Notes: generated from the sequence alone by a model not told the origin. A stretch of DNA of 64,000 bases from Desulfobacteraceae bacterium Eth-SRB1 (GCA_004193555.1 RPGP01000029.1:36093-100092), one strand, 5' to 3'. Shown: positions 11,522-50,061, counted from the first letter of the stretch. Numbers and translations: made by a program.

Positions 11522-11614
11522 GGGTTACCTTTAAAATAAAACTATAATCTCAAGTTTCGCATTCTTAATTTCCATTGCCGTCTAACACTTTCGAGGAATA
11601 GCAAGGTACGAAAC

Positions 11615-11743
11615 TTGACGAATTCGTAAAAAGTCAAATTCATCAGGTGTTAGGTGTTAAGATAAAACATTTAACTGTCATATCAAGATCTTAACACTTA
11701 ACACTGTTCGTAAAAAATGGTTTTTCGACTTTTTAAAATATCA
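11615..11743. repeat. Family A intergenic element
   Basis: TTGACGAATTCGTAAAAAGTC...GTGTTAGGTGTTAAGATAAAACATT...CTTAACACTTAACAC; core nearly identical to 59220-59278. Confidence 0.8.
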
Positions 11744-28984: not shown

Positions 28985-29150
28985 TTTTTGAACGTCCAAC
29001 GTCCAACATCGAACATCCAACGTCGAACATCGAATGATGAGATCGCTTCGCTCTGCCGGTTTATAAATTGGCAGAATACCTTATTCAAAATTCGATGTTG
29101 GACGTTCGATGTTCGACGTTCATCTTTTAAGCCCGCCCGAAGGGCGCTAA
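28985..29150. repeat. Heptamer-armed palindrome (AACATCG/AACGTCC), including the second 72-bp repeat copy
   Basis: GAACGTCCAACGTCCAACATCGAAC... is inverted to ...GATGTTGGACGTTCGATGTTC; relative at about 54083-54200. Confidence 0.85.
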
Positions 29151-36392: not shown

Positions 36393-37355
36393 TTACAGAT
36401 CCAATGGGCTTCGAACACCTCGCCCCCCTTTATTCAAAACATGAGTGTATATCATAGTAGTACTGACATCTTTATGGCCCAGAAGCTCTTGAATCGTCCG
36501 AATATCATAACCGTCCTCTAACAAATGTGTTGCAAAGCTGTGGCGAAACACATGGCTGCTTACCGTTTTTGTGACTCCTGAAATCCGAGCGGCTTTTTTT
36601 ATTGCCTTACTTAGACTATCCAGATGAATATGATGGCGTCTTTTAATACCGGAACGAGGGTCAACAGACAAGGTTTTGGATGGAAAGGCATACTGCCATC
36701 CCCATTCTTAGGAAGCATTTTTATATTTCTTTGCCAGAGCATTCGGAAGATAGACTGAACCATAGCCTTGAGACAAATCCTTTTCATGCAGCTTCTTGAC
36801 ATATTTTAGATGTTCTTTTAACGCAAGTTTAGCATCTTCCGGAAGCATTGTAACCCGGTCTTTTTGACCTTTGCCATTGCGAACTACAATCTGGTTCATC
36901 TCAAAATCTATATCTTTAACCCGCAATCTTACGCATTCAATCCCCCGAAGACCACATCCATAAAGAAGTTTTACTATCAATTGAAATATACCTGTGATGG
37001 AATTGATAATTTCCATAGTTTCATCAAATGTCAAAACAGTCGGAAGACGTTGAGGCTTTTTCGCTCGAAGCGCATCAATATTTTTAAATACATCTTTATT
37101 TAGAACATTTTTATATAAAAACAGTAATGCGCTGAAAGCCTGGTTTTGTGTTGAAGCAGCTACATTACCTTTGACAGCCAAATCGGTGAGAAATGCCTCT
37201 ATCTCTTTTTTGCCCATATCTTTTGGATGCCGCTTATTGTGAAAATAAATATATCGTTTTATCCATGAGACATATGCTTCTTCCGTCCTTATGGAGTAAT
37301 GTTTTAAACGAATCTTATTCCGTACGATGTCTAAAAGTTTCGGCTGCTGGTTCAT
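36393..37355 (-). pseudogene. intI: Integron integrase with an in-frame stop at 36708-36710
   Basis: [39 protein letters not shown], plus the integron-specific insert YLPNALAKKY...EWGWQY. The two ORFs are in the same frame, separated by TAA. Confidence 0.93.
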
Positions 37356-37699
37356 GGTATAATAACTTGATTTTAGAATAATTATGAAGTATAGGTTTAG
37401 AGAATTTTCTTCCATATTTGTACTATTTTTCTGGATTTTGCAACAAATAAAAGTTTATAAAGATATTTTTCTGAATATAACATTATATCTTTTTTTATTA
37501 AGAAATAATTATTAATTTTATTATAGAAATATTATTTGCGAAGGTTACCTAACAGAAAATATATTTTATATTTTTCAATAGATAGATTAATACACTTGAA
37601 ATGAATATAGATGTTAAAATACCTTTAAAGAAATCTAACATCCGGTATTTTAACATAATTTACAACTATTCAAGATAATTTAACTTTATTAACGTTATT

Positions 37700-37730
37700 T
37701 AGAATATTTTCGTAATAATAATTGTTATCT
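37700..37730 (+). other. attI recombination point (G|TTATCT at 37724)
   Basis: GTTATCT is the exact complement of AGATAAC, the R'' of the first attC; it lies just upstream of the first cassette ORF in an AT-rich region divergent from intI. Confidence 0.75.
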
Positions 37731-37761
37731 GTAGCGATGATGAATATAGGAGGATCTTTTT

Positions 37762-38424
37762 ATGTGGCTGACAATATTTGGAGTCGTACTTGGTGCAATA
37801 ATTGCCATTTTAATCACTATTGTCATAGAGCTTCTCCGAAAACCCAACTTTGGTTTTGAGATTCTCCCTCCCAAAGATATGGATTTTGATAACCAACCTG
37901 CAAATCGGATGAGAGCTGTTTGCCTCAAATTGGTAAATAAGCCTCTGCCAAAAGGGGCGCGATGGATGTCCCGAAATCCAGCCCTCCAGTGTCACGGCGC
38001 TATAACCTTTCATCATCTTGATGGGCAGAATGTTTTTGGAAGATCCATGATTGTGCGTTGGTCTGGTGCGCCTGAGCCGAACCCATTACGAATCCGGATA
38101 GGTGCCGCAGAAGGATTGGTATTTGATCCTGTAAGAATTACTCATATCCAAAAAATGGATATTTATCCGGGTGAAAGCGCTGACATTGATATTGCTGCAA
38201 GATTTGACGGAGAACCTGAATGTTATGGCTGGAGCAATGAAAGCTATTTTTCAAATCCACCTTGGCGCACAGCCCAATGGCGACTTGAACCACATCGGTA
38301 CATAGTAAAAGCAACTATTTTTTCATCGGGAGAAACCTGCTCAGAAATATTCCGTCTAATTAATGATGTTCAGCAACAGGATTTTAGGTTAGAAGCTGCA
38401 TTACCTCAAGATTCTGCGCTATAA
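37762..38424 (+). CDS. Integron cassette 1, hypothetical protein with N-terminal TM helix
   Basis: AGGAGG RBS; bounded by attI and attC1; no family recognised. Confidence 0.8.
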   Translation: MWLTIFGVVLGAIIAILITIVIELLRKPNFGFEILPPKDMDFDNQPANRMRAVCLKLVNKPLPKGARWMSRNPALQCHGAITFHHLDGQNVFGRSMIVRWSGAPEPNPLRIRIGAAEGLVFDPVRITHIQKMDIYPGESADIDIAARFDGEPECYGWSNESYFSNPPWRTAQWRLEPHRYIVKATIFSSGETCSEIFRLINDVQQQDFRLEAALPQDSAL

Positions 38425-38434
38425 AATTAATTAT

Positions 38435-38562
38435 AGATAACAACCGCTTGCACTCTGACCGGCGGGGTCGTGCGGCTTTACAAAGTTTTCGGTATGCGAA
38501 ATAACGCACCATTAAACAGACCTCAGGTTTGCTCCGCCGTCAGGTGAAGCGGGGCGTTCGGT
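38435..38562 (+). other. attC site 1
   Basis: R'' AGATAAC; L'' CTT[G]CAC[T]CTGAC[C]GGCGG pairs with CCGCCGTCAGGTGAAG; R' GTTCGGT. Confidence 0.9.
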
Positions 38563-38588
38563 GTAATAAAAAAGGAAATTACAAGTCA

Positions 38589-39245
38589 ATGACCAAAACG
38601 AACTTAACAATTGAACTTCTTCAGACAGAAGCCAATAAATTTGCTACAGTTGAATCTTCTCACGATGAGCCAAGTTTGTTTGGTGTAACAGACGGCAAGG
38701 CGGTTGGGACATACTTAGAACATAAATTTCAAAAATATCTGCATGAAAATTATGTATATATTGAAGGCTCATCCGCTAAAGGCATTGATTTCCCTGAACT
38801 CGGGGTTGATCTAAAAGTAACAAGCATTAAACAGCCACAGTCATCATGCCCTTTTAAATACGCAAAACAAAAAATATACGGCCTTGGATACGCATTGCTC
38901 GTTTTTGTTTATGAGAAAATTGATAAGAATAAACAAAAAACAGGCAGATTAAATATACATCACACTGTTTTTGTCGAGAAACATCGAACGGCGGATTTCC
39001 AAACAACTTCAGGGCTGAGAAAAATCATCGAGAACAATGGCAATCAAGATGATATTATAGCTTTCTTTGAAGAGCGTTTACTTCCAGTCGATGAGATCCA
39101 AGCACAAGAACTGGCCGAAGAAATATTACAAAAGCCGCCGGAACTTGGCTATTTGACGATATCAAACGCCCTACAGTGGAGGTTGCAATATAGTCGGGTA
39201 ATTCAAGAAGCCGGCAATATTGAAGGTATAAATAAGGTTTACTGA
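38589..39245 (+). CDS. Cassette 2: putative type II restriction endonuclease
   Basis: IDFP..GVDLKVTS resembles a PD-(D/E)xK motif; stop overlaps the MTase start (TGATG). Confidence 0.7.
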   Translation: MTKTNLTIELLQTEANKFATVESSHDEPSLFGVTDGKAVGTYLEHKFQKYLHENYVYIEGSSAKGIDFPELGVDLKVTSIKQPQSSCPFKYAKQKIYGLGYALLVFVYEKIDKNKQKTGRLNIHHTVFVEKHRTADFQTTSGLRKIIENNGNQDDIIAFFEERLLPVDEIQAQELAEEILQKPPELGYLTISNALQWRLQYSRVIQEAGNIEGINKVY

Positions 39246-40774
39246 TGACGAAAAAAAAGAAAATAGAATTTGGTGATTTCCAAACACCAATTGAACTTAC
39301 CGATAATATATCAAAATTTATTAAAACCATTTTCCCCACACCAAACATTATTATCGAGCCAACATGTGGCTTAGGGAGTTTCGTTAAATCCTGTAAATCT
39401 ATTTGGGGAACAGATTGCTCTTATTATGGGTTCGATGTAAATCCTCAATATATTGAAAAATGTAATACGAACATTAATGACCGAGGTAATTGCCACTTTG
39501 AAGTGGCAAATTTTTTCCAGAAAAACTGGAAGGATCTGTTTCTTACTTACAAAAAATCTAAAGTTTTAGTAGTCGGAAATCCTCCGTGGGTTACGAATGC
39601 GGCTTTGGGTGTTCTCAACAGTAGCAATTTGCCTCAAAAATCTAACTTTCAGGGTTTAGGTGGTTTTGCAGCAAAAACAGGAAAAGCAAATTTCGACATA
39701 GCAGAATGGATGCTAATAAAATTAATTGAAAGCTTAAAGGGATGTAACGCATGCATAGCAATGTTATGTAAAACAGCAACTGCTAGAAAAGTTTTAAAAC
39801 ACTTTTGGATTAATAATAGCCAAATTAATAATAGTTTTATTCATTTAATTGATGCTAAACAGTATTTTAACGTATCTGTTGATGCTTGCTTATTTGTCAC
39901 TTTCGTAAATTCTAAAGATAAATCTAAAGACGCATATATTTATAATGATTTGTCTTTTAGAAATGAAGTAACTCATTTAGGTATATATGCTAATGAATTA
40001 ATAGCAAATATTGATGATTTTGAGAAGTATCGTGATGTAGATGGTATTGATTACTATAAATGGCGTTCTGGAATTAAGCATGATGCTTCTAGGGTAATGG
40101 AGTTAACAAAGGATAATGATAAATTTAAAAACGGTTTCGGAGAATACGTTGAGATAGAGAGTGAATATCTATATCCGCTTTTAAAATCATCAGATCTTGG
40201 CAATAATAGACTTACACCTCGAAAATATGTGATTGTTACTCAAAAGACCGTAGGAGAAAATACTATAGTAATAAAAAAAACTGCACCGAAAACATGGGCA
40301 TATCTGGAACAGTATTCTTCTATTTTGGATAGCAGAAAAAGTATTATTTATAAGAATCGTCCACGATTTTCTGTTTTCGGTATAGGTGATTATAGTTTTA
40401 CTTCATGGAAGGTTGCGATTTCTGGTCTTTATAAAGGGATTCATTTCTGTGCAATTGGGCAGTATGATAAAAAACCGATTATGGTAGATGATACTTGTTA
40501 TTTTATCCCATGTAGTTCAAAAGCTGAAGCAATACTTTTTGCTCAACAACTAAATTCTGAACCTTGCATGAAATTTCTTAAATCTTTAATATTTTTTGAT
40601 GCCAAGAGGCCAATTAATATAGATATTTTAAGAAGGATTGATTTTAAAAAACTTTCTGAAATAAATGAAAAAGAGGATGAAGTTTTAAAATTTTTGACTT
40701 ATGCCCAAGCTCCATTAACTCAACAACTCTCGTTGGTTTTTGAAAAAACGGAAGAATACCGAACAATCGGATGA
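39245..40774 (+). CDS. Cassette 2: N6-adenine DNA methyltransferase (gamma class)
   Basis: Motif I IEPTCGLGSF, motif IV GNPPW. Confidence 0.88.
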   Translation: MTKKKKIEFGDFQTPIELTDNISKFIKTIFPTPNIIIEPTCGLGSFVKSCKSIWGTDCSYYGFDVNPQYIEKCNTNINDRGNCHFEVANFFQKNWKDLFLTYKKSKVLVVGNPPWVTNAALGVLNSSNLPQKSNFQGLGGFAAKTGKANFDIAEWMLIKLIESLKGCNACIAMLCKTATARKVLKHFWINNSQINNSFIHLIDAKQYFNVSVDACLFVTFVNSKDKSKDAYIYNDLSFRNEVTHLGIYANELIANIDDFEKYRDVDGIDYYKWRSGIKHDASRVMELTKDNDKFKNGFGEYVEIESEYLYPLLKSSDLGNNRLTPRKYVIVTQKTVGENTIVIKKTAPKTWAYLEQYSSILDSRKSIIYKNRPRFSVFGIGDYSFTSWKVAISGLYKGIHFCAIGQYDKKPIMVDDTCYFIPCSSKAEAILFAQQLNSEPCMKFLKSLIFFDAKRPINIDILRRIDFKKLSEINEKEDEVLKFLTYAQAPLTQQLSLVFEKTEEYRTIG

Positions 40775-40830
40775 ACTCTGACTGAAAAAGCCTGGCCGTT
40801 TTTTGGTTTCTACAAATTTTGTTGTTTATC
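40758..40830 (+). other. attC site 2, left half (interrupted by IS21)
   Basis: R'' ACCGAAC is the complement of GTTCGGT at the start of cassette 2; L'' GGATGAACTCTGA; ends abruptly at TGTCAA. Confidence 0.85.
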
Positions 40831-40955
40831 TGTCAATGGACAATAATTTTGACCCACTACCGGACAATAAAACTGACCCACCCCCTGCACTTAGTTTAAA
40901 TTGATTTTTTGTTTGAGCCGATAGCTTTCACCCCCCATCATAAAAATATGTGAAC
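40831..40955 (-). mobile_element. IS21-family terminal region (probable right end)
   Basis: TGTCAATGGACAATAATTTTGACCCACTACCGGACAATAAAACTGACCCACC: TG start and tandem transposase-binding repeats. Confidence 0.75.
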
Positions 40956-44612: not shown

Positions 44613-44687
44613 CTATAACAACAAGGATAACCTGATGATGAAAGCAAAACAAATATGGCTACAAAAGCAAAGAAAGATTAGGTAAGC
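44613..44687 (-). other. attC site 2, right half (displaced and inverted)
   Basis: Minus strand TCAGGTTATCC-TTGTT-GTTATAG; TCAGGTTATCC pairs with GGAT[G]AAC[T]CTGA of the left half; abuts the IS21 left end. Confidence 0.75.
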
Positions 44688-45753
44688 TGTTAGCGGTCCG
44701 TTTATAATGACGGTAGCCGAACAATAAAACTGACCCACCCTCAAACAGTGCTTAACAGGCAGCATAATAAAAAAATTATTTACCATAATTAATATGTTGT
44801 AGGAGGTTCCTCATTATTTTCAATAAGGAGGAACAGATGTGAAGAAGATTGGAATAGCCAGGTTTACATAAAGATTAAATTGCTCTATGATGATGATGGC
44901 CAGCGGGTACATTTTAGCTCCGTGCCATTGCTATCAGACTTCAGGTATCGAGGAATACAATCGAAGATACCTGCAAATGAATGAGGAAGAGATCTGCAAG
45001 ATATGTAAAGCAAGAGACGGACAGAACTCGGTAAAATATAAAATTATATTATCTCCTGCTTGAAAATATGAAGAAATTATCTGCTGTTAAAATCAAACTT
45101 AAAATAGGGATAGTTTAACTGTCTCTAACGGGTCACCAGCCAAGGCGCTACGTAAACGGAATCAGGCAAACTATAGCCATTGAGAGCAGAAACGCTATTA
45201 TGAACCTGTTATGGATATGGTTCCAGGGAGTTCAGTGCTTGGTGAATCACGGAGAAATCAAGGAGGAATGTTCCTGTTGGCGATAAATTTATCACTATCC
45301 TATTTTGTAGTATTTGTTCTCTCTTTTTACGACAAATGCTTGTATGTTGCGGCCTCTAATCGGCCAATTAATACAGAAGGCATGTTTATCAAGGATGCAT
45401 GATGAGGGCCTTTTAGATACTTTGACGGTGTTTGTGAAATTATTATTCTATGACCAGACTAAGCTTGTTACAATCACCAGAAGGAGTTCAGAGGAGGAGT
45501 CTGGTTCAATGAAAGTTTTTTATCAATATGCTTCTGCGGCCCTTGGATATATACGAGGTATGTGAAGGATATTATGACCGAAACAAGAACCCAAGGGTCG
45601 AGTCCGGTGTAAAATATGTAAGAACGATTTTTTTTCTATGGCGACACATTTGATTCTTTTTGATCAGCTCAAGCACGAATCTTTGCAGTTAGATTGGATA
45701 CGGTTGCAAACAAAAAGCGTATTCACGGCTTACGAAAAAGCCGGAAGAACTTT
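44688..45753 (+). mobile_element. istA: IS21 left end and frameshifted 5' part of istA
   Basis: TGTTAGCGG...ACAATAAAACTGACCCACC; peptides RAIAIRLQVSRNTI, RYYEPVMDMVPG, YDQTKLV, ESGVKYV across frameshifts. Confidence 0.75.
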
Positions 45754-46988: not shown

Positions 46989-48558
46989 TGTGTCAATGAA
47001 AATGAGACACCTCCATCAGTAATTTAGTGTATCACCGAATCACTTTCATTCGGTGATGGTTTATTAATCCAGGCTGCCTTTGGTAATGCCATCGGTTTTG
47101 GAACCTTTCCCTTGAACCGGTTTGGATGTTTTTCAAAGGCTATTTTCAATACCTTTTCACGCTCTTTGATAATTTGTTCAGCCCGTCCATAATGTACATC
47201 TTCCGGTGTGACAAAACCAATACCTGAATGGTAGTGTCCTGTATTGTACCAAAGGAAGAAGCCATGACAAAAGAATCTGGCATCTTCAATAGCGCCAAAC
47301 CGCTCTGGAAACTCAGGCCGATATTTCATGGTCTTGAACTGCGATTCTGAATAAGGGTTGTCATTGCTGACGTAGGGTCTTGAATGACTTTTGGTAATCC
47401 CTAAATCAGCCAATAACAATGCCTTAAAATAATAAAGATGTTAATTGGCCTCTTGGCATCAAAAAATATTAAAATTTAAGAAATTTCATGCAAGGTTCAA
47501 ATTTAGTTGTTGAGGCAAAGTATTGCTTCAGCTTTTTGAACTACATGGGATAAAATAACAAGTATCATCTACCACTTAATCGGTTTTTATCATACTGCCC
47601 AATTGCACAAAATAAGATCGCTTTATAAAGACCAGAAATCGCAACCTTCCATGAAGTAAAACTATAATCCACCTATACCGAAACAGAAATCGTGGACCGA
47701 TTCTTATAAAAATAATACTTTTTCTGCTATCAAATAAGAATACTGTTCCAGATATGCCCATGTTTTAGTTTTTTTTTATTACTATAGTATTTTCTCCTAC
47801 AGTCTTTTTGAGTAGCTGTCATATTTTCGAGGGTGTAAGTCTATTATTGCCAAGATCTGATGATTTTAAAGCGGATATAGATATTCACTCTCTATCTCTT
47901 GTATTCTCGAAACCGTTTTTAAATTTATCATTATCCTTGTTAACTCCATTACCCGCAGAAGCATCGTAGCAATTTCCAGAACGCCATTTATAGTAATCAA
48001 TACCATCTACATCCGCGATACTTCTCCAAAATCATCAATATTTGCTATTAATTCATTAGCATATATACCTAAATGAGTTACTTCATTTCTAAAGACAAAT
48101 CATTATAAATATATGCGTCTTTAGATTTATCTTTAAATTTACAGAAGTGACAAATAAAGCAAGCATCAACAGATACGTTACAATACTGTTTAGCATCAGT
48201 GCCGTGAATAAAACTATTATTAATTTGTGTAATCAAAGTGTTTTAAAACTTTCACAGCAGTTGCTGTACATAAAGCATTGCTATGCATGCGTTACATCCT
48301 TTAAACTTTTCAATTAATTTTATTGGCATCCATTCTGCTATGTCGAAATTTGCTTTTCTGTTTGCTGCAAAACCTACACCTAAACACAAAGAGAGTTAGA
48401 TTTTGAGGGCAAATTGCTGTTGAGAACACACACCCAATTTGTTGCTTTGCTAACATGGGTTGCTATTGATGCATTCTTTAACATTTTATTTCTCCTTCCC
48501 GCCCTCTATAATATACACTAAATTATAGGTTGGGAAGTGTCTCACTTATATTGGCACA
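46989..48558 (-). mobile_element. IS3-family element, 1570 bp, interior overwritten
   Basis: 26-bp IRs TGTGTCAATGAAAATGAGACACCTCC (46989) and TGTGCCAATATAAGTGAGACACTTCC (48558); transposase C-terminus at 47024-47419 (SNDNPYSES, WYN...H); RBS and ATG at 48484. Confidence 0.85.
47425..48437 (-). repeat. Indel-rich inverted copy of the MTase gene segment 39605-40630
   Basis: Colinear reverse-complement match across about 1 kb with many small indels. Confidence 0.92.
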
Positions 48559-49367
48559 GAGGGTGGAACATCTTCAAGTGAAATAAATCTGAAAATATCT
48601 CTTAATATTCCAATGGTGCGGGGGATATTTTCATAGGCGAGTTTTCTGTTGAAATCCTTTTTTGCCCGCATTCGTGCGGCAAACAGGCCATAAGTGATTG
48701 TCTGGGAATAGAGATCTGCAAAGTCTTCTTTTGAAAGCCCGCTGATTAAAAACTGCCTGAATGCGTCATAAAATCCAAGGATAAAGCTTTTGCCGGTTTT
48801 TTCTTCCTCTGCCAGTTCATCGGCAATTACCTCGTTCTTTAAAAAGCTCGTGCGTTTTGCAAGCTCTATTGCCAGATTTTTTGCATTATAAACCTTGGGC
48901 AAAGAGAATGAATAAAACGCCTCCATCAATTTTGTAAAATCCGGTTCTTTTTCAACAGGAGGAATTGTTTTGAGCTTATGTACGATAAAGGGTCGTGCTA
49001 TTAATACTTTATTGACAAGAATGCCGTTTCGATAAAGCCTGAACTCGAAAAAATTGGTTAATATCAGGTTGGGGAAGGTTTTTCTGTATCTTTTTAGCTG
49101 TTCTGACTCTTCTATCAAATCCAGATTTTCAGTTGTTGGGGCTTTAGCTTCTATATATCCTACAATATGCTGCCTTCCATCCCAGACCCGGAAATCAGGA
49201 TTGCCTGCCTCGGTGGCTTTGGGGAGTGTGGTAATGTGTATTTTGCTTTTGCCGAAAGATTGCGCTATTTTTTTGAACAATTCATCAAGGGTTGCATAAT
49301 AACTTTCCTCCCTGGCATCCCCCTGATTTGCAATTTTAAATATTTTTTTCAGATAAGATTTCAGCAT
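48559..49367 (-). pseudogene. N-terminal part of a type IIG/ISP restriction-modification enzyme, truncated by IS3
   Basis: AREESYY, GNPDF...GYIEAK nuclease motif, FADLYSQTITYGLFAAR; frame runs into the IS3 IR. Confidence 0.8.
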
Positions 49368-49380
49368 TCAGATTGCCTGG

Positions 49381-49444
49381 ATTTAACATGTTAGATAAGA
49401 CCGTGGTTCGCTTCGCTCTCACGATCTATCTTTATTCGTTATGC
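49381..49444. other. attC site 3 (64 bp)
   Basis: ATTTAAC-ATGTT-AGATA[A]GACCGTG...CACGATCTATCT-TTATTC-GTTATGC. Confidence 0.65.
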
Positions 49445-49774
49445 TCCGGCGCTATGCTGTAAACTATTGCCGGTATCTTTAATAGGGATAATTCGTCGTT
49501 CAATATCCGTCCAAATTTTACGCTTCGTCATTCGCAGATTATATTCAGTTTGCAGATTCAGCCAAAACTGAGCTTCAACTCCAAAATACCGCTGTAGCCT
49601 CAAGGCTGTGTCAGCAGTAATGGACCTTTTTCCATTCACAATTTCACTTACCCTGTTGGGGGGAACTGAAAGCTCACGAGAAAGCTGATTAATGCTAATG
49701 TTTAATGGTTTCAGAAAATCCTCACGAAGGATTTCACCAGGTTTTATAGGGTCAAGATTTTTTTTTGTACTCAT
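49439..49774 (-). CDS. higA: HigA antitoxin
   Basis: PGEILRE, ITADTALRL, FWLNLQ. Confidence 0.93.
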   Translation of the reverse strand: MSTKKNLDPIKPGEILREDFLKPLNISINQLSRELSVPPNRVSEIVNGKRSITADTALRLQRYFGVEAQFWLNLQTEYNLRMTKRKIWTDIERRIIPIKDTGNSLQHSAGA

Positions 49775-49782
49775 AGGTCACC

Positions 49783-50061
49783 TCAGTGATAGTCCGTAAT
49801 TTCAACATGGTACGCATTACCGTCATTCCATTCAAAACATACGCTCCACTGCTTATTGATACTGGTAGCATATTGCCTTTTTCGATCCCCGGAAAGGGCA
49901 TGAAATTTGTTCCCTGGATTAAGCATCAACGCTTCTATGCTGGGAGCGGCATGAAGAACCATTAACCGTTTTCTTGCCTGCCTTTCAAAGGCTTGAAAGC
50001 GGCGTACCCGTTGATCGTTGAATAGTTTTTCAGTATCTCGGCAGGCAAATGATTTAATCAT
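49783..50061 (-). CDS. higB: HigB (RelE/ParE family) toxin
   Basis: MIKSF, L.G.R..Q.....N.QW..CFEW, EITDYH. Confidence 0.92.
   Translation of the reverse strand: MIKSFACRDTEKLFNDQRVRRFQAFERQARKRLMVLHAAPSIEALMLNPGNKFHALSGDRKRQYATSINKQWSVCFEWNDGNAYHVEITDYH

Follow-up and report, generated by a model that had tools for sequence, protein, structure and literature searches.

The question raised by this locus is how an array of gene cassettes became fixed in a chromosome, and whether the loss of the integrase is sufficient to explain it. The stretch of DNA analyzed here (the window) comprises 64,000 nucleotides of Desulfobacteraceae bacterium Eth-SRB1 (GCA_004193555.1 RPGP01000029.1:36093-100092) and embeds, between positions 36393 and 40830, an integron integrase gene (intI), the attachment site attI and two gene cassettes, the second of which carries a restriction-modification (RM) pair. 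A first-pass annotation of the same sequence had proposed a chromosomal integron, hosted by a sulfate reducer, whose defence-oriented array was frozen after the loss of the integrase. The presence of a chromosomal integron is borne out by the comparative analysis: intI, attI and attC-bounded cassettes were all found, with the attC site of the first cassette (attC1) on the cassette side, in the right orientation and 1.1 kb from intI; the proposed host also agrees with the relatives, which are Desulfobacterales. As to the fixation of the array, we consider it very probable that a small chromosomal integron is decaying, with a very recent stop codon in intI and an intact RM pair locked by an IS21-family element that splits its attC site (attC2).

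The gene intI (36393-37355, minus strand) consists of 320 codons, with one nonsense codon inside, and was assigned through the profile TIGR02249 ("integron integrase", NCBIfam; cut-off 265 bits) and an alignment with its orthologues. Indeed, the minus-strand frame running from 37415 to 36393 is open apart from a single TAA at 36708-36710, and the reading frame is thus broken by this one codon; the true start, MNQQPK (37355), was set by the alignment with relatives. The translation read through the stop scores 463 bits against TIGR02249, and, when it is split at the stop, 279 bits are obtained for the first 235 residues and 143 bits for the C-terminal 92. The TAA falls within the integron-specific insertion (KYKNAS*EWGWQY; minus strand), 5' of the codons for the catalytic HxxR, His and Tyr. 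The same alignment revealed that the catalytic motifs, MIYTHV among them, are all retained, and that the integron-specific extra domain near patch III is present and aligns with that of the orthologues. The closest of these, the intI of the Desulfobacterales metagenome-assembled genome (MAG) Yes71-19 (JASEIZ010000007.1), is 93% identical and lacks the stop; its codon at the TAA position is AAA (Lys), and Lys, Arg or Gln is encoded there in further relatives, in agreement with the earlier suggestion that Lys or Gln would be plausible at this site.

The age of the stop can be approached through the ratio between the proportions of nonsynonymous and synonymous differences (pN/pS; Nei-Gojobori counts, window intI versus the Yes71-19 orthologue), which is 0.14 upstream of the stop and 0.09 downstream of it. 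These values indicate that purifying selection acted on the 3' part of the gene during nearly all of its divergence from Yes71-19, and, given this low pN/pS beyond the stop, the TAA is either very recent or an assembly/base-call error. If it were an error, then the integrase would be intact, the platform would be active, and only the RM cassette would be immobile, owing to the IS21 element. An intI that is perfect save for one substitution, with a pN/pS as low past the stop as before it and with every catalytic motif in place, fits this possibility. However, the genome includes three Mb-scale contigs, which may point to long-read sequencing, and long-read errors are mostly indels, rather than A-to-T substitutions. 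Moreover, integrase decay is a pattern in this genome (3.34 Mb, 52 contigs, 42% GC; C1, C28 and C40, cited here and below, are contigs of it). Five loci exceed the TIGR02249 cut-off, three of which are uninterrupted (C1:3178-4125, C1:450443-451378 and C40:866297-867229); the two bearing stops are the window intI and a full-length paralogue with a TGA and a TAA (C28:756-1691), to which at least two intI remnants (C40:1162562-1163208 and C40:79177-79464) must be added. The erosion of integrases thus appears to be recurrent in this genome, and we regard an error at the TAA as unlikely.

The platform between intI and attI (37356-37730, plus strand), with the attI core GTTATCT at 37724-37730, was delimited by comparison with Yes71-19: the two genomes share about 90% identity in the spacer between intI and attI through ...AATTGTT, and the sequences are unrelated beyond this point. 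Since the homology ends at GTT, the attI crossover can be placed between 37724 and 37725. The homology with Yes71-19 also breaks off abruptly on the other side, at the last intI codons (window position 36393). Its loss at both edges implies that the 1.35-kb platform has different genomic surroundings in these two genera, which belong to one family, and it is possible that the intI-attI platform itself may have moved.

The first cassette (37725-38556, plus strand, 832 bp) was delimited by core-site complementarity and by comparison with homologous cassettes. GTTATCT at 37724-37730 and AGATAAC at 38435-38441 are exact complements, in such a way that the first bases of the cassette, TTATCT, complement the R'' box AGATAAC of its own attC. 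The same is true for the second cassette, which opens at G/TTCGGT and in which GTTCGGT (38556-38562) and ACCGAAC (40758-40764) are exact complements. Hence, both the exact complementarity of the core sites and the cassette limits proposed previously (37725-38556, and 38557 onward) hold. Cassette 1 contains an open reading frame (ORF; 37762-38424, plus strand) coding for a membrane-anchored protein of 220 aa with an N-terminal transmembrane helix and a beta-sandwich, an architecture also seen in its AlphaFold (AF2) model (pLDDT 87). The protein has no match in Pfam, NCBIfam or PADLOC, and a search of its model against the Protein Data Bank (PDB) structures gave no match at E<=0.001, returning generic beta-sandwich matches (TM <= 0.31, E > 0.004). 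These results do not establish a defence-oriented array: cassette 1 has no defence-family or structural match, and the label is owed to the RM pair. Most of the 261 homologues of the cassette 1 protein lie on metagenome contigs about 1 kb long; on two longer contigs (L054 and L055), the homologue is found within rows of small co-oriented ORFs, and both homologous cassettes open at an identical GTTATCT, although the attC that precedes them differs. The same R'' box, AGATAAC, then follows the homologue of L054. The recurrence of this cassette in other arrays, with the same GTTATCT start, indicates that cassette 1 is a bona fide mobile cassette.

The site attC1 (38435-38562, plus strand, 128 nt, R'' AGATAAC ... 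R' GTTCGGT) was recognized by folding. Its bottom strand folds, as DNA, into a long bulged hairpin of -26.6 kcal/mol (z = -3.5; 0/200 shuffles as good), and it is present in a single copy in the genome. The search for attC sites was performed with a relaxed scan for AAC...GTT arm pairing, the attC covariance model of IntegronFinder not being in Rfam; between 36 and 52 kb of the window, attC1 is the sole intact AAC...GTT hairpin, and the weaker matches are at the level of shuffled sequences. Neither the core of attC1 nor that of attC2 fits the strict RYYYAAC/GTTRRRY consensus, and a strict RYYYAAC...GTTRRRY scan missed attC1 and matched unrelated hairpins at 11580-11655 and 28987-29124. The former is a 76-nt hairpin (GTCTAAC...GTTAGGT) that matches the attC core consensus and lies far from any integrase, being possibly a miniature inverted-repeat transposable element (MITE) or a repetitive extragenic palindrome (REP)-like sequence. 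The latter is a hairpin of tandem heptamers (GTCCAAC / ATCGAAC ... GTTGGAC / GTTCGAT) with an AT-rich loop, which looks attC-like in a naive scan and has a different repeat structure.

Cassette 2 (38557-40830, plus strand) carries the RM pair and is cut off within its attC; its limits come from the core complementarity and from the comparison with the pair on L056/L057, discussed below. The first gene (38589-39245, plus strand) codes for a type II restriction endonuclease of the NspV family (218 aa), matching the equivalog NF052465 along the entire profile (positions 1-209 of 209; 355 bits, cut-off 290) and the PADLOC profile REase_II (344 bits), and its homologues bear the Pfam domain PF27258 ("NspV"). 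The second gene (39245-40774, plus strand) codes for a DNA methyltransferase of 509 aa with a C-terminal recognition domain, which matches PADLOC MTase_II (PDLC03310, 500 bits, profile 4-475 of 475) and, above the cut-off, Pfam N6_Mtase (31 bits). Motif I (EPTCGLGSF) and motif IV (NPPW) can be read directly in its translation; their layout is that of the gamma class, typical of N6-adenine enzymes, and the product of the reaction is likely N6-methyladenine (m6A). Neither enzyme had a useful match in sequence searches of the PDB. The stop codon of the former gene and the start codon of the latter overlap by one base, the shared A of TGATG, and the same gene order, overlapping or abutting, is maintained in the homologous pairs; this overlap suggests that the two enzymes are probably co-translated. 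The earlier description of cassette 2 as an endonuclease plus a methyltransferase is supported: the two genes form a type II unit with strong homology to RM systems, and the methyltransferase is of the N6-adenine type (NPPW).

As for the specificity of the system, NspV is a TT^CGAA enzyme (NspV / AsuII type), and, by analogy with this family, the membership of which does not fix specificity, the recognition sequence is likely TTCGAA. Over the whole genome, there is strong avoidance of several 6-bp palindromes, CAGCTG (observed/expected ratio, O/E, 0.24), GTCGAC (0.48) and CGATCG (0.49), which hints at other, longer-resident restriction systems.

A further question concerns whether the RM pair is a genuine cassette. 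Searches for homologous pairs gave thousands of matches, many of which are in ordinary chromosomal contexts, and at least two further metagenomic arrays have this pair as a cassette. On L018, a complete attC of 138 nt (1853-1990; R'' ATCGAAC ... R' GTTGGGG) stands downstream of a 98%-identical methyltransferase, and its arms form a 20-bp bulged stem with a fold energy z of only -0.9; attC sites measure roughly 55-140 nt, a range into which both this site and attC1 fall. On L056/L057, an 89%-identical endonuclease lies behind a short attC (L056:961-1011) that ends with GTTCGCA about 30 nt 5' of the ATG, and the exact complement of this core, TGCGAAC, is found 3' of the methyltransferase (L056:3351-3357). 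Here the R'' box is about 90 nt past the methyltransferase stop, not within the gene, and the attC is unrelated to attC2.

In the window, the R'' box of attC2 (A[T/C]CGAAC) is made up of conserved Tyr-Arg-Thr codons (TAT/C CGA ACx) at the end of the methyltransferase gene, within 40758-40774. The Glu-Tyr-Arg-Thr codons underlying this box (GAATATCGAAC) occur in non-cassette homologues too (L012, L013 and L016), and the ACCGAAC match taken by itself is therefore weaker evidence than it might appear. Accordingly, one could imagine the RM pair as an independent module that landed beside attC1, the ACCGAAC match being a coincidence with conserved methyltransferase codons; the presence of GAATATCGAAC at the 3' end of homologues in an ordinary chromosomal context and the wide diffusion of the pair outside arrays would fit this scenario. 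On the other hand, the RM cassette opens exactly at the G/TT of attC1, a full attC stands behind the 98%-identical methyltransferase of L018, and in L056/L057 the pair follows another attC, whose boundary lies about 30 nt 5' of the endonuclease start codon and is matched by TGCGAAC downstream, so that such a coincidence appears highly improbable. The R'' box embedded in conserved codons, the two unrelated attC sites found with the same pair and the adjoining remnants of group II introns might also be read as a snapshot of an operon gaining an attC and becoming a cassette. This idea has, in our opinion, a slim chance of being correct; if it were true, the hypothesis of an intron-mediated genesis of cassettes would become testable on a concrete family.

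At the downstream end of the RM cassette, only the left half of attC2 is found (40758-40830, plus strand), comprising R'' ACCGAAC, the L'' arm and part of the loop, as revealed by the comparison with L018 and with contig C40. Two copies of the attC2 family are present elsewhere in the genome (C1:415095-415232 and C40:1008904-1009038), and the left half is 98% identical to the C40 copy. Neither the segment 40758-40830 (z = -0.1) nor longer stretches gave an attC fold, a failure that led to the explanation involving an IS21 element. Indeed, the truncated right end of an IS21-family element (40831-40954, minus strand), with the terminal TGTCAATGG... and the 3' end of istB, begins immediately afterwards and was identified through its genome copies; hence, position 40830, previously taken as the end of the feature, is not the end of the attC but the point at which the central loop of attC2 is interrupted by the IS21 end. 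The element beginning at 40831 has nine or more copies in the genome, 97-99% identical. A full copy (C1:1066203-1068686) codes for IstA (HTH, rve and Mu-transpos_C_2 domains) and IstB (PF01695 IstB_IS21, 225 bits) and is flanked by a 5-bp duplication, CTTAA, in an AT-rich target unrelated to attC; to our knowledge, the IS21 family is not known for targeting attC sites. The window holds just two IS21 ends, with a degraded duplication (GTTTATC / GCTTACC). The other end, the left part of the element (44688-45753, plus strand; TGTTAGCGG...), has a decayed istA and ends at a group II intron. It is abutted by the right half of an attC2-family site (44618-44687, minus strand), which embeds the L' arm and R' GTTATAG, is inverted, and is 88.9% identical to the C40 copy over 54 nt. 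The arrangement of the two halves can be explained either by one IS21 insertion followed by an inversion or by the recombination of two IS21 copies inserted in two related attC sites. With its attC2 split, the RM cassette is left without a recombination site at its distal end.

On this basis, the following succession of events can be proposed. A platform formed by intI and attI once took up circular cassettes, at the G/TT of its attI, and two of them remain. The mobility of the array is now blocked by two independent locks: a single AAA-to-TAA change, which truncates IntI ahead of the catalytic His/Arg/Tyr, and the insertion of an IS21-family element in the central loop of attC2, after which a later rearrangement left the matching right half of attC2 inverted, 3.8 kb off. 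Since the stop is very recent (unless it is an error) and the arms of the rearrangement around the integron have diverged by 10-15%, the loss of the integrase alone does not explain the fixation. Therefore, the scenario of an array frozen after integrase loss stands insofar as intI is interrupted, but it must be modified in that this interruption is very recent, the split attC2 locks the RM cassette on its own and three uninterrupted integrase paralogues remain. Expression might be driven by an upstream promoter, and the RM pair might confer some addiction or defence benefit.

The three uninterrupted paralogues, all above the TIGR02249 cut-off, raise the issue of whether the array is frozen at all, because one of them might act in trans, in such a way that cassette 1 could be excised or new cassettes could be inserted. 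The recognition of attC sites by integron integrases is structure-dependent and often promiscuous, which would favor this kind of activity. However, the recognition of attI is normally specific to the cognate integrase, and the paralogues share about 52% identity (range 50-54%) with the window intI. In addition, cassette 1 could leave solely through attI x attC1, and the RM cassette has no distal attC, whichever integrase acts. A mobilization in trans is thus unlikely, and we maintain the idea of a decaying integron with a locked RM cassette.

Some points weigh against this interpretation. A base-call error at 36708-36710 would restore the integrase; the identification of the attC sites relies on their folds and on comparison rather than on the IntegronFinder covariance model; and the scan for promoter-like sequences and terminators gave sites no commoner than expected by chance. 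As for the RM pair, TTCGAA shows a mild depletion in the genome (O/E 0.76, rank 14/64 palindromes), which lends no independent support to the proposed specificity or to a long-term activity. Lastly, the right half of attC2 is about 89% identical to the family, versus 98% for the left half; it might belong to another attC of the family, which makes the history of the rearrangement uncertain.

The region to the right of the array is a mosaic. It harbors a second copy of nucleotides 39606-40620 of the methyltransferase gene, which is inverted and decayed (47438-48432, minus strand; 89.5% identical, with many stops and frameshifts), pieces of group II introns on both strands between and beyond the attC2 halves, including an intron domain matching RF02005 (45787-46026), a RAYT-like element and a fragment of an insertion sequence (IS) with an rve_3 domain. 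As a whole, the segment 39606-48432 forms an imperfect palindrome of about 8.8 kb, centered around 44025, whose arms are 82-90% identical; it comprises the 3' part of the methyltransferase gene, RAYT-like pieces and a group II intron into which an IS fragment is inserted, with patches replaced by IS21 and by a second intron. Farther on, a type IIG restriction-methyltransferase is represented by its N-terminal quarter (48546-49367, minus strand, 273 aa; PADLOC PDLC03610, profile 1-259 of 1096), which is adjoined by a HigB/HigA toxin-antitoxin pair (49439-50061, minus strand; joint stretch 48546-50061), past which an Opp-type ABC transporter is found. The HigBA pair and the type IIG fragment were considered as further cassettes, but the relaxed scan found no attC beside either of them, and they were not counted in the array.

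What this locus provides is a comparatively validated case, beyond Vibrio and Xanthomonas, of defence genes (a type II RM system) carried as cassettes, together with the decay of the integron through a nonsense mutation and the invasion of mobile elements. It shows that the fixation of a cassette is possible via damage to its attC as well as through the loss of the integrase, and an addictive RM pair may make the attC lock hard to reverse. The five integrase loci of this genome, being at different stages of decay, also represent a useful natural series in which the erosion of integrons in Desulfobacterales can be followed. The current understanding of integrons is left unchanged by these findings.

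Indeed, RM cassettes in chromosomal integrons and arrays stabilized after the inactivation of intI have both been described already (10.1101/2024.07.02.601686; 10.1101/2025.06.18.660453), and the locus is thus a well-documented case of phenomena already known rather than a new type of system. Integrons are enriched in RM genes, type II and type IV being the prevalent restriction types (Darracq et al., bioRxiv 10.1101/2024.07.02.601686). The locus resembles the Vibrio superintegrons with defence cassettes described there in its intI-attI platform, its co-oriented cassettes ended by attC and its compact defence system of one or two genes; unlike them, it has two cassettes instead of tens to hundreds, it resides in a Desulfobacterales host, its integrase is broken, and IS21, a RAYT-like element and group II introns have entered its array. 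In Xanthomonas, stop codons, frameshifts or deletions have inactivated intI, which leaves stable cassette arrays (bioRxiv 10.1101/2025.06.18.660453). The inactivation of intI by a stop codon is shared with the window; however, in Xanthomonas it is old and common to lineages, whereas here we observe a single, very recent nonsense change, with intact paralogues in the same genome.

The RM pair is similar to the NspV / AsuII-type systems in having a full-length NF052465 / PF27258 endonuclease and an NPPW methyltransferase of the N6-adenine type; in this case, however, the genome shows no marked avoidance of TTCGAA, and the specificity is predicted from the family. Finally, mobile elements that disrupt attC sites are known, such as the IS1111-attC insertion sequences and the group IIC-attC introns (PMC3001079). 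The situation found here is similar in that a mobile element inside an attC breaks a cassette boundary, and in that the nearby group II intron pieces are antisense to the cassettes; it differs in that the element in attC2 belongs to the IS21 family (IstA/IstB).

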